A stretch of DNA of 57,676 bases. Origin: an uncultured Candidatus Saccharibacteria bacterium (lineage in GTDB: Bacteria > Patescibacteriota > Minisyncoccia > Phycocordibacterales > Zambryskibacteraceae). The stretch is from contig CAZSOL010000001.1 in assembly GCA_964608585.1 (NCBI GenBank), positions 15,990-73,665 of the forward strand, given 5' to 3'. A model generated the notes under the pieces. The model ran no database searches and had not been told where the DNA came from. It was given only the letters and a program-made list of their open reading frames with translations. Every line of letters begins with the position of its first letter. The first letter of the stretch is position 1. Made by a program: the position numbers and the translations under genes. Below are positions 35,918-39,183 of the stretch, piece by piece.

Positions 35918-36713
35918 AAGAGCTGTTCGCTCGCCAGAGTTCCATAAGAGGAAGGAACTAGAGAGGAAGTTGCGCTTAGGTCTCTTTGCCCTTCTGGCTT
36001 CTGCTGTTATTGTCTTACCAACATATTTTCTTGGTAGTGAGGCTCTTCAGGTTAGGAAGGTTTTTGTACAAGGTAATCTGGTTACCACAAGTATAGATAT
36101 AGAGAGGATGGTTAGAGAGAGTTTGGTAGGTGAGTACTTGGGTCTTATCCCGAGGTCCAGCACAATTTTATTGTCAAAGAATATTATAGAGCAGAGACTC
36201 TTAGAGAGTGTCCCACGTCTTGCATCGGTACACCTCTCTCGTGAGGGGCTAAGTGGAGTATCGGTAGATGTGGTAGAGAGAGTACCGAAGGCTTTGTATT
36301 GTACTGACGAGTGTTACTTCTTAGATGGAGAGGGTTACATATACTCTGAGGCTCCAAATTTTGTCGGTGAGGCGTATCTAGAGTATAGAGATGAGAGTTT
36401 GCCCACTGCTCCAGTTGGTTCTTACTTCTTGCCGAAGGAGGACTTTGAGGAATTACATAATTTTGTTGAAAGCTTTAGAAGTCTTAATTTAAATCCAAAA
36501 ATGGTTATGAAGAGTGGTGATGTCTATAAGGTGATACTAGAGGGTGATGTGGAAGTCAGGTGGCGAGATGACCAAGATATTTCCAAACTCTTTGTTGATC
36601 TCAGCTCTTTTATAAACGATGGCCAGCTAAAGAATCTCAAAATTGAGGATCTCTTGTATCTAGACCTTAGCTTTAACAACAAAGTGCACTGGGTGTACAA
36701 AGATGGGCGTTAG
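35898..36713 (+). CDS. ftsQ: FtsQ/DivIB-like POTRA-domain cell-division protein
   Basis: Basic N-terminus, one TM segment, then VRKVFVQGNLVTTSIDIERMV (POTRA). The ATG at 35898 overlaps the serS end by 20 nt. Confidence 0.55.
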   Translation: MKLVGSKRAVRSPEFHKRKELERKLRLGLFALLASAVIVLPTYFLGSEALQVRKVFVQGNLVTTSIDIERMVRESLVGEYLGLIPRSSTILLSKNIIEQRLLESVPRLASVHLSREGLSGVSVDVVERVPKALYCTDECYFLDGEGYIYSEAPNFVGEAYLEYRDESLPTAPVGSYFLPKEDFEELHNFVESFRSLNLNPKMVMKSGDVYKVILEGDVEVRWRDDQDISKLFVDLSSFINDGQLKNLKIEDLLYLDLSFNNKVHWVYKDGR

Positions 36714-36735
36714 CCTTGCCCCGCTATGGCGCAGG

Positions 36736-36763
36736 TTGACAAATTTCTAGGGGGGTGTATACT
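36736..36763 (+). promoter_or_regulatory. Sigma-70-type promoter of candidate sRNA A
   Basis: TTGACA (36736-36741), N16, TATACT (36758-36763). Confidence 0.6.
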
Positions 36764-36769
36764 GGAGAG

Positions 36770-37001
36770 TAGATAAGTACTTGGGTGGTTGTTGGGCTCT
36801 TTGAGCAAACCAAGAGGATTACGTGTTACCAATCGCGCTTGAGCTCACAGCAGAGCAAGGGCAAGGATTGGCCAGCTAGGGGAACCGGACCCGGTCTCCC
36901 GCGACTACATGGGCCCAGAACACGTATTGACTCAAGATGCGCTCGCTCCCAGCAACCACCCACCCCCTGCCCTCCAACTCCGTTGGAGGGCGTTTCATTT
37001 T
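36770..37001 (+). ncRNA. Candidate structured small RNA A (~230 nt), class unknown
   Basis: Bounded by its own promoter and terminator, and GC-rich relative to the flanks. A 14-bp closing helix pairs GGGTGGTTGTTGGG (36783-36796) with CCCAGCAACCACCC (36948-36961). Several internal hairpins are present, e.g. CCAATC/GATTGG and GCTCacagcaGAGC. The only ORF across it (36785-37108) is Pro/Arg/Gly-rich and runs through the terminator. Confidence 0.6.
36970..37001 (+). terminator. Rho-independent terminator of sRNA A
   Basis: CCCTCCAACtccGTTGGAGGG (9-bp stem) followed by cgTTTcaTTTT. Confidence 0.75.
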
Positions 37002-37016
37002 ATGTAAAATATTTTT

Positions 37017-38021
37017 ATGAATTTTTGGAAAAGTTTGAAGAAGCCAATAATGGTTCTAGCTCCCATGGCCAACGTCACCGACGTGGCCTTCCGTCGTATC
37101 ATTGCTAAGTATGGGAAGCCCGATGTTACTTGGACAGAGTTTGTCTCGGCCGACGGTTTAGCTCTTGCTCCAGAGGAGGGGAGGAAGAAATTACTAAAGG
37201 ATCTTGAGTACATTGACGCGGAGCGTCCTATAGTCGCGCAGTTCTTTAGCTCCTCGCCTCAGAACATGAGGAAGGCTGCAGAGCTTGCGCGCGAGCTTGG
37301 CTTTGATGGAGTAGATATCAATATGGGGTGCCCCGACAGAAGTGTGGAGAAGCAGGGTGCTGGTGCGGCACATATCAAGAACCCCAAGCTCGCGCGCGAG
37401 GTTATCCGTGCTGCTAAGGAAGGAGCAAGAGACTTGCCAGTGTCGGTTAAGACAAGAATCGGTTACAACAAGAACGAGTTAGAAACTTGGCTACCAGAAC
37501 TTCTTGCTGAGAGCCCAGCGGTAGTCACTGTCCACGCTCGTACAAGGAAGGAGATGAGCAAGGTTCCGGCTAGATGGGAGCATATAAAGAGGGCTGTAGA
37601 GATACGTAATGAGATGGGTGTAGATACTTTGATATTTGGTAACGGAGATCTTAAGGATATAGAAGATGCTAGGAAGAAGTGTAAGGAGACTGGTGCAGAC
37701 GGAGCGATGTTGGGGAGAGCAATATTCGGTAACCCGTGGCTCTTTGCTCCACTTCGACAAAATGAGTTGTCTGCTCACGGTCAAGAGGGAAATTCGCGAC
37801 CAACTCATTTTGTTTCAGTTGAAGAGAAGTTGAGAGTGATGGTAGAGCATACCAGAGCTTTTGAAGAGCTCTTGGGAGGTATGAAGAGCTTTGCTCTGAT
37901 GAAGAAGCACTATAAGGCCTATGTGAACGGCTTTGATGGAGCAGTGGACTTGAGGGCAAGACTGATGGAGGCAGATAATGCACAAGAGGTGAGTGACATA
38001 GTAGAGAGGTTTTTTGTATAA
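37017..38021 (+). CDS. dus: tRNA-dihydrouridine synthase
   Basis: 334 aa: LAPMANVTDVAFRR, DINMGCP, VSVKTRIG, VTVHARTR. Confidence 0.88.
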   Translation: MNFWKSLKKPIMVLAPMANVTDVAFRRIIAKYGKPDVTWTEFVSADGLALAPEEGRKKLLKDLEYIDAERPIVAQFFSSSPQNMRKAAELARELGFDGVDINMGCPDRSVEKQGAGAAHIKNPKLAREVIRAAKEGARDLPVSVKTRIGYNKNELETWLPELLAESPAVVTVHARTRKEMSKVPARWEHIKRAVEIRNEMGVDTLIFGNGDLKDIEDARKKCKETGADGAMLGRAIFGNPWLFAPLRQNELSAHGQEGNSRPTHFVSVEEKLRVMVEHTRAFEELLGGMKSFALMKKHYKAYVNGFDGAVDLRARLMEADNAQEVSDIVERFFV

Positions 38022-38022: not shown

Positions 38023-38028
38023 TGAGAG

Positions 38029-38231
38029 ACACGAGCAGTAGACCACTCTTTCTTGGGAGGATACATGATCCAAGGATATGTCTGAGGCTGCGTGAAGGCC
38101 TGATCTGGTGGGGGTCAGGCGTATGAGTACCAGTGCGTAGTGTCCGGGGGGAAGCTACGCACTGGTATACCCCCACCACATATGTGCCAATGGGGCACGA
38201 TACATGACACCACGAAGTGGTGTCTCTTTTT
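38029..38231 (+). ncRNA. ffs: Candidate small RNA B (~200 nt), possibly SRP (4.5S/scRNA-like) RNA
   Basis: A long helix pairs GGTGGGGG with CCCCCACC and encloses a perfect 13-bp stem, TACCAGTGCGTAG/CTACGCACTGGTA. The apex GTCC-GGGG-GGAAGC (38141-38155) resembles SRP helix 8 (E. coli UACCAGGUCAGGUCC-GGAA-GGAAGCAGCC, recalled from memory). It lies upstream of dnaX, as scr/ffs does in many bacteria. The RNA ends in a terminator. Confidence 0.45.
38206..38231 (+). terminator. Rho-independent terminator of sRNA B
   Basis: GACACCACgaaGTGGTGTC followed by TCTTTTT. Confidence 0.75.
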
Positions 38232-38243
38232 ATAAAACTTGAT

Positions 38244-38272
38244 TTGACAAAAAAGGTGAGGTGTGCTAAGCT
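38244..38272 (+). promoter_or_regulatory. Promoter of candidate sRNA C
   Basis: TTGACA (38244-49), N17, TAAGCT (38267-72) with TGc extended -10. Confidence 0.6.
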
Positions 38273-38278
38273 TAAGAG

Positions 38279-38435
38279 AGGTTGGTGGCAATAAGGTCTG
38301 TGGCCACGTACGGCAGATGCGTCTGTGATGAGGGCCCGGAATCCCTCTGATCGACAAACTCCGTCCGTGGCCCAGACAGCCACACCACGTACCACAACTT
38401 ACGAGGTCCCAAATATGGGGCCTTTCGCTTTTTAT
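38279..38435 (+). ncRNA. Candidate small RNA C (~155 nt) with a C/D-box-like K-turn motif, class unknown
   Basis: It has its own promoter and terminator. A long irregular hairpin pairs GTCTG-t-GGCCACG-t-ACGG with CCGT-c-CGTGGCC-CAGAC. The apical element GTGATGA-GGG-cccggaat-CCC-t-CTGA (38325-38350) would allow tandem sheared G.A pairs and a U.U pair next to GAGGG/CCCTC. Confidence 0.55.
38404..38435 (+). terminator. Rho-independent terminator of sRNA C
   Basis: AGGTCCCaaatatGGGGCCT followed by TTCGCTTTTT. Confidence 0.7.
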
Positions 38436-38529: not shown

Positions 38530-39183
38530 ATGCGAACCAAGCGGTTGGCTGGACTCGCGACCTTCTTGGTCGCCGTCCTTCTCTCGATGTCTGCTTGCTT
38601 GAACGAGCAGATCATCAGTCCTCCCAGCTACTGCGAGGTCAATCTTGACCTCGTGGTGACGAACTCTGGCTCAGCTCTTCCTATCGGAAGCTCTGACACC
38701 GTGTCGGTCGTGCAGACTGACAACTGTGACACGCGGTATACCTTCAACTTCGTGTCGAACAACGGCCACGTCTCTGTCACGAGACTCAGCCCTACTTCGG
38801 CACAGGTTACTGGTGTCTCGGCTGGCACCTCGGTCGTCACTGTGACGGCGGTGGAGGACACGAGTCGGCAGTTCCTCGTGACCTTCGTGGTCCCGAGCAC
38901 TTCGTCGGCTAGCTCCATTGACTACACGCCACACTCGGGCGCCTTGGCTGTTGGGGACTCTGTCCTTGTCACAGCTCATTGTGTGCAAGGGTCGGACATC
39001 TCCGAGGCTTGCAACCCATTTTGGACGTCTTCTGACCCAGGAACTGTCACGCTTCGTGGCACTGGGCCAAATGGCACCGGCATGACAGCTTGGATGAAGA
39101 GGATCAAGGCTGGATCTGTGGGACTTTGTACTCAGTGGTCACGCACACGGAGTACTCCACAGAGGTGTTACACCAGATCCTAG
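38530..39183 (+). CDS. GC-rich lipoprotein with bacterial Ig-like (Big_2-like) repeats; the 3' end may be frameshifted
   Basis: Signal peptide plus lipobox (LLSMSAC). SSDTVSVVQ...AQVTGVSAGTSVVTVTAVED is a typical Big_2 pattern. A second repeat ends in an Arg-rich tail (TQWSRTRSTPQRCYTRS), while another frame reads SVVTHTEYSTEVLHQIL. Sampled lines are 53-67% GC. Confidence 0.65.
   Translation: MRTKRLAGLATFLVAVLLSMSACLNEQIISPPSYCEVNLDLVVTNSGSALPIGSSDTVSVVQTDNCDTRYTFNFVSNNGHVSVTRLSPTSAQVTGVSAGTSVVTVTAVEDTSRQFLVTFVVPSTSSASSIDYTPHSGALAVGDSVLVTAHCVQGSDISEACNPFWTSSDPGTVTLRGTGPNGTGMTAWMKRIKAGSVGLCTQWSRTRSTPQRCYTRS

Follow-up and report, generated by a model that had tools for sequence, protein, structure and literature searches.

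The ends of E. coli 4.5S RNA, tRNA and tmRNA are laid out as a terminal helix followed by ACC, and this layout is resembled by an RNA gene located between ftsQ and dus in an uncultured member of the Patescibacteria. The likeness concerns the ends only: G-rich 5' and C-rich 3' ends form a long terminal helix, an unpaired ACC(C/A) comes straight after the helix, and a short 5' leader precedes the first G. Unlike 4.5S RNA, however, the RNA has no SRP domain IV and no Rfam SRP match, and its interior is hypervariable. The Y RNAs (Ro60/Rsr; YrlA) are similar in other ways, having a conserved terminal stem, a bulged-C helix, a freely varying interior and an accessory status; the locus described here differs from them in the lack of a TROVE/Rsr gene, of a tRNA-like module and of any Rfam Y RNA match. 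With 6S RNA (ssrS, RF00013) it shares its size, a stand-alone, strongly promoted gene and a long closing stem, whereas its branched shape, its dispensability and its hypervariability set it apart from that class, as do the absence of a visible conserved central bubble and of a match to the 6S model. The locus is new in that it combines three features, namely a handle that is conserved, a conserved duplex whose connectivity is permuted, and swapping of alleles that is documented.

The window is the whole stretch of 57,676 nt that was analyzed; it belongs to a 460-kb Patescibacteria assembly of the Minisyncoccota/Paceibacteria type in 7 contigs (G000). Between an ftsQ-like ORF with a POTRA_1 domain, which stops at 36713, and dus, which begins at 37017, lies a real, single-copy gene for a non-coding structured RNA of an uncatalogued family, found in one lineage (one subclade of one genus). 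The RNA is predicted to be about 190-230 nt long. Our fuller reading, which we hold with moderate confidence, is that 36769-37001 on the + strand is a stand-alone gene consisting of a handle and a variable interior, that its alleles are recombined, and that its RNA binds protein and is matured by RNase P. The features of the locus are as follows.

36736-36763, + strand: sigma-70-type promoter (TTGACA, a G-rich 16-nt spacer, TATACT), matching the consensus at 11 of 12 positions
36769-36782, + strand: 5' leader UAGAUAAGUACUU, with a near-identical leader in the close relative L231
36783-36796, + strand: 5' strand of the closing helix P1, GGGUGGUUGUUGGG, from the minimum free energy (MFE) fold and the pair table of 5 distinct alleles
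36797-36947, + strand: variable interior with a branched, GC-rich fold; it folds well and aligns poorly or not at all to other alleles
36880-36900, + strand: bulged-C hairpin, made of GGGAACCG, the loop GACC and then CGGU(C)UCCC, which recurs in other alleles
36948-36961, + strand: 3' strand of P1, CCCAGCAACCACCC, from the MFE fold and the pair table
36962-36969, + strand: unpaired ACC/C-rich tail ACCCCCUG leading from P1 to the terminator; ACC follows P1 in 5 of 5 alleles
36968-37001, + strand: intrinsic terminator (11-bp stem, 3-nt loop, U-rich tail), from the site scan and its presence in every allele
37005-37019, + strand: start signals of dus (-10-like TAAAAT box, 6 nt, ATG), a layout also seen in relatives and not part of the RNA

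The -35 box TTGACA occupies 36736-36741 and the -10 box TATACT 36758-36763, and transcription of the RNA presumably starts about 6-8 nt past the latter. At the other end, the terminator stem covers 36968-36992 (11 pairs) and its T-rich tail reaches 37001. The original prediction had described a promoter and a terminator bracketing a segment that is more GC-rich than its flanks; all of its coordinates were verified, and the GC content was 57-62% inside the RNA segment and 38-45% in the flanking DNA. The scan for such sites is weak evidence when taken alone, since the 4 promoter-like and 3 terminator-like sites in the region were close to the 3.2 and 2.4 expected from shuffled sequences. The weight of this evidence lies in the conservation of both elements in relatives. 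The same promoter, with a GGGGGTGTA-type spacer, was also present in G019, G021, L231, L232, L245-L248 and L249, and a hairpin followed by a U-tract was found at the terminator spot in every allele, with a compensatory change from A-U to G-C in the stem of L252.

The + strand folded with an MFE of -97.6 kcal/mol (z = -4.87), and none of 200 dinucleotide shuffles folded as well; the fold of the minus strand was less exceptional (z = -3.58). When the five type-A alleles, defined by the promoter, leader and closing helix seen in G000, and three other spacer RNAs were compared with their own dinucleotide shuffles, every one folded significantly better, with z ranging from -2.0 to -5.6. The MFE fold of the G000 RNA was multi-branched. 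It contained the 14-bp closing helix that had been predicted (P1, 36783-36796 with 36948-36961), with a pairing probability of 1.0, together with all of the internal helices drawn earlier, namely CCAATC/GATTGG, CTTG-a-GCTC/GAGC-AAG, ACCG-gacc-CGGT and ACGTGTT/AACACGT. The helix proposed to compete with the last of these, GCGCTTGAG/CTCAA-gat-GCGC, was 12.5 kcal/mol costlier and had an ensemble probability of about zero; this part of the prediction failed, and a bistable switch was rejected for the same energetic reason. The RNA had also been judged unlikely to be coding, and the present data agree: the single long ORF over it (36785-37108) had no Pfam match and was kept in none of the relatives. 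No ORF, small hydrophobic peptide or Shine-Dalgarno sequence was common to the alleles. A type I toxin mRNA with a 5'-3' fold-back was rejected on the same grounds.

A search of the window with Rfam 15 returned tRNAs only. Nothing was found on the RNA region even at E = 10, and none of the relatives' alleles had a match, a result that, together with the compensatory changes in the closing helix and the separate promoter of dus described below, supports the predicted independent non-coding structured RNA of no recognized class. A resemblance to 6S RNA had been suggested as well. In that case a divergent 6S-type RNA would bind the RNA polymerase holoenzyme as an open-promoter mimic, and its size, its long closing stem and its stand-alone, strongly promoted gene would fit. 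The role is also unfilled by a canonical 6S RNA: G000 and 21 relatives (22 genomes in all) had no match above the cut-off, with an Rfam model that is insensitive and detected 6S RNA in 5-7 of 14 control genomes. However, the RF00013 model gave no match on 36650-37100 at E up to 10 and none genome-wide. Instead of a rod with a conserved central bubble, the MFE and consensus folds were multi-branched, and the interiors were non-homologous, even between near-identical strains. In addition, a sister lineage and the greater part of the genus lack the RNA, which would not be expected of a global housekeeping regulator. The suggestion is left unsupported, and we regard a 6S-type RNA as very unlikely.

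Models of bacterial SRP RNA (RF00169, RF01854) and the domain IV motif gave no match at E up to 10. Neither PF02978 (SRP_SPB) nor PF00448 was found in searches of G000, and PF00448, the GTPase domain common to Ffh and FtsY, was found in 0 of the 22 genomes, several of which are 100% complete; no ORF of G000 carried a DTAGR motif. Because Ffh and FtsY were detected in none of these genomes, the RNA is not SRP RNA. On this showing the SRP pathway may be missing in the lineage, and we found no paper reporting its absence there. A Y RNA or YrlA was rejected, since TROVE (PF05731) was not found in G000.

RNase P RNA (RF00010) was also rejected for the region, which had no match to the model; the genome's own copy lies at G000:C1:151-457. 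This copy scored 99.4 bits and had all conserved regions, including GAGGAAAGUCCG and ACAGAAUUCGGCUUA. Default annotation would miss it because its score is below the Rfam gathering score of 100. Similarly, tmRNA (RF00023) was rejected for the region with no Rfam match, and ARAGORN found no tmRNA in the G000 assembly. Canonical tmRNA was present in 20 of the 22 genomes searched (G000 and 21 relatives). The smpB gene of G000 (C6:9016-9432) ends exactly at the contig end; as relatives have canonical tmRNA, ssrA probably lies in an assembly gap. At G000:C7:1537-1620, ARAGORN reported a tRNA to which it assigned no identity and whose anticodon has four bases ('ttcc'); the tmRNA model had a weak match at the same place, and the call may be spurious.

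The succession of promoter, structured RNA, terminator and an ORF 16 nt further on is the classical layout of a cis-acting leader or attenuator, which would control dus in a riboswitch-like manner via the terminator at 36968-37001. However, dus has retained a -10 box of its own, 6-7 nt ahead of the ATG, indicating that the RNA is not a dus leader. The arrangement TAnnnT-N6-7-ATG stood before dus at 22 of 44 loci, compared with 6 of 44 in a control window, and it occurred in relatives with and without the RNA; examples are TAAAAT-N6-ATG in G000, TAGAAT-N6-ATG in G007 and TACAAT-N6-ATG in G021. No Shine-Dalgarno sequence was present before dus. This arrangement suggests that the dus mRNA is leaderless and has its own promoter. 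Further, in G007, L234 and most of the genus dus is expressed with a spacer of 2-40 nt in front of it, no antiterminator alternative to the fully paired P1 was apparent, and strains with the same dus had non-homologous interiors. We consider control of dus by attenuation extremely improbable.

The ftsQ-dus synteny was recovered at 53 loci, and most of the spacers were 40 nt or shorter. Spacers of 135-400 nt were found in part of one genus only. Type-A RNAs occupied the same spot in G019, G021, L231, L232, L236 and L245-L249. In the Dus tree, G000 grouped with L231, and the sister group comprised G007/L234 together with L232, G021, G019 and L236; G007 and L234, which fall inside the clade, had a 30-nt spacer and no RNA. 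The RNA gene is accessory and dispensable: it is an insertion between ftsQ and dus, which otherwise adjoin tightly, and a sister lineage does without it. The type-A pattern of P1 was found in 3 of 22 genomes of the genus, with one copy each, and in 0 of 400 other sampled genomes of the order. The RNA was single-copy in every carrier genome. In a pattern scan of GTDB genomes for the hairpin there were 107 matches, nearly all of them chance occurrences in high-GC genomes, and one relative among them was informative.

A comparison of orthologous spacers showed that the closing helix was kept through compensatory changes. In the pair table of 5 distinct alleles, compensatory double changes (G-C/A-U, U-A/C-G) were seen at 4 positions of P1, whose length varied from 13 to 18 bp, and the G.U wobbles fitted the + strand only. 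Directly 3' of P1, ACC followed by a C-rich stretch was present in all five alleles. In the interior, the alleles of the G021 class and the diverged L249 had 10 compensated pairs, compared with 2.8 +/- 1.3 in shuffles (0 of 500 reached 10) and 0-4 in slid controls. Few independent lineages underlie the covariation: P1 was compared in five alleles, and in the interior the signal comes in essence from a single diverged sequence. Judged by sequence comparison, conservation in relatives extends to the promoter and 5' leader, to the closing helix with its ACC/C-rich tail, and to the bulged-C helix.

L236 and G019 encode almost identical Dus proteins, and identity between the two loci was 99.4% through ftsQ as far as the -35 box and 99.1% within dus. 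However, their RNAs were non-homologous from immediately after that box until the 3' strand of P1 is reached, and from there to the dus start the identity was 86%. Each of the two alleles was present in two assemblies. The combination of flanks about 99% identical with unrelated interiors indicates that alleles were swapped by recombination, and it is the signature of homologous-recombination import from a diverged donor. G000 and L231 presented a similar picture at greater distance, with flanks 81% and 80% identical and an unalignable stretch at 36792-36987. Starting in ftsQ, their 81% homology crossed the promoter and the leader without a gap; the BLAST alignment ended at 36791 and restarted at 36988. 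Between G019 and G021 the relation was reversed: the RNA was 91-99% identical compared with 69-91% in the flanks and was the best-conserved stretch of the locus, which would reflect either purifying selection or the recent spread of one allele.

The position of the element in an otherwise tight gene junction, the inverted repeat at both of its bounds, its patchy distribution and its strain-specific content would also be expected of a selfish or relict DNA insertion, MITE-like with 14-bp terminal inverted repeats, in which the RNA fold is incidental. Such an insertion does not account for one copy per genome and none elsewhere in the 22 genomes of the genus or the 400 of the order. Moreover, the arms of the repeat co-vary and contain G.U wobbles, which at the DNA level would count as mismatches; compensatory evolution is seen in the interior; and the promoter, situated beyond the repeat, has been conserved along with it. 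The replacement tract in L236 does not stop at the repeats but continues into dus, as fits homologous and not site-specific recombination. There was no match in the phage collection either: a phage origin was searched for in 50,697 phage records, and neither the G000 nor the G021 allele had a blastn match. We therefore consider a DNA insertion with an incidental fold highly improbable and retain the reading of a structured RNA gene with exchanged alleles.

The interiors of G000, L231, L236 and the G021 group could not be aligned in either orientation, and an inverted segment (inverton) was rejected since the interiors do not align when reversed. In global alignments, the z score was 0.03 between G000 and L231 and 0.2-0.7 between L236 and all others; the G000 interior was weakly similar to those of G021 and L249 (z = 2.9 and 4.0). 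A duplex of GGGAACC and GGU(C)UCCC with a bulged C formed a hairpin in G000, G019, G021, L232 and L249, and this hairpin was identical in all five except for the loop N. In L231 the strands of the same bulged-C duplex were connected in permuted fashion, so that the closed end was the opposite one. The chance of finding both words in one interior is about 1e-5, and in 61 genomes of the family the hairpin motif occurred at this locus only, with 0 control matches. The bulged-C helix was absent from the L236 allele, showing that the element is not universal. That the duplex stays constant whatever its connectivity argues that the double helix itself would be recognized, most simply by a protein. 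Mimicry of a protein-binding site in rRNA was rejected, as the bulged-C words paired nowhere in the rRNA contig.

RsaE/RoxS are C-rich sRNAs of Gram-positive bacteria that act as a model for another explanation, a regulatory sRNA in which the C-rich tail (ACCCCC) is the seed for base-pairing to G-rich Shine-Dalgarno regions. The gene has its own promoter and terminator, and between P1 and the terminator a single-stranded C-rich stretch of the RsaE/RoxS kind is kept in all alleles. However, about two dozen 9-mer matches to the complement of the tail were found outside the locus when about 31 were expected by chance, and in this count over the G000 genome no clustering at start codons was apparent. 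When the whole RNA was compared with the rest of the genome, the longest matches were 13-mers in sense orientation, at chance level. Base-pairing also leaves the long, sequence-conserved P1 and the permuted bulged-C helix unexplained. We consider a base-pairing regulator rather unlikely. An antisense regulator of a genomic target was rejected, as there were no extended complementary matches and the matches to the tail seed were at chance level.

The RNA is best read as an accessory RNA with tRNA/4.5S-like ends that probably binds protein. Its constant handle consists of the 5' leader, a P1 of 13-18 bp and the ACC/C-rich 3' tail, with the bulged-C helix in most alleles, and the rest of the interior is allele-specific. 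Strains exchange whole alleles by homologous recombination in the genes on either side. Because the helix-plus-ACC ends resemble those of tRNA, tmRNA and E. coli 4.5S RNA, we infer that the primary transcript may be matured as these RNAs are, with an RNase P cut at the first G of P1 and trimming of the 3' end back to the ACC tail. Most tRNA genes of G000 do not encode CCA. The helix-plus-ACC layout could also have been inherited by chance. The mature RNA would act in trans by binding protein, a mode suggested by sequence-conserved duplexes that remain unchanged whatever their connectivity; P1 and the bulged-C helix would be the putative binding sites, and base-pairing to mRNAs would probably not be the mode of action. 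Patescibacteria genomes are tiny, which makes it unlikely that a strongly promoted, GC-rich RNA gene in 460 kb is idle.

Among orphan sRNAs the gene is unusual in that the terminal helix, the ACC tail and the bulged-C duplex are visibly under selection and everything else is replaced wholesale. Should the handle bind a protein, the RNA would be a simple natural modular scaffold-plus-cargo RNA, and its gene would be an RNA gene with the behaviour that population genomics describes for a replacement islet. The locus also offers a concrete case of allele exchange by homologous recombination in uncultured CPR bacteria. A more specific proposal, which we regard as unlikely, is an RNA 'cassette slot', in which a constant handle (promoter, leader, P1 and ACC tail) carries a swappable module that is kept under diversifying or frequency-dependent selection and traded by recombination. 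If true, the module would determine specificity at the level of RNA; it could do so in defence, for instance, in contacts with a host or partner, or by acting as a decoy for a protein that varies. To our knowledge, a determinant of this kind has not so far been described among stand-alone bacterial sRNAs.

Different RNAs occupied the ftsQ-dus slot in other relatives. G006 and L250 carried a different GC-rich structured RNA with a common GGCUGAUCAG...CAGCC-GCCACC, a similar promoter and an AGUAC leader motif. The slot RNAs of G012, L151 and G005 had a common 3' module, and G001 had yet another structured RNA. When metagenomes were scanned with Dus, 80 loci were obtained; a spacer RNA was found in L151 only, and it was of another type.

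The DNA 3' of dus was variable as well. Two promoter/terminator-bounded sRNA candidates with closing helices of the GGUGG...CCACC type were located at 38025-38231 and 38270-38435; neither had an Rfam match even at E = 10. The first could not be aligned to L231, and the stretch with the second was 72% identical to it. As the first downstream candidate is also unalignable to L231, fast turnover may be a regional feature and not specific to the RNA. In the slot of the first candidate, L231 had a 38-residue Arg/Lys-rich ORF instead (L231:3646-3762), with an AAGGAGG Shine-Dalgarno sequence and a G-rich hairpin after the ORF; this site is a second variable slot in the neighbourhood. Between the sRNA candidates and dnaX, a surface-protein gene (38530-39183) varied from 217 to 534 residues among close relatives (L231, L232, L234, L236); the 217-residue form of G000 had no Pfam match, and a faint Big_2 match was seen in L232. 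The stretch from ftsQ to dnaX is as a whole a variable region.
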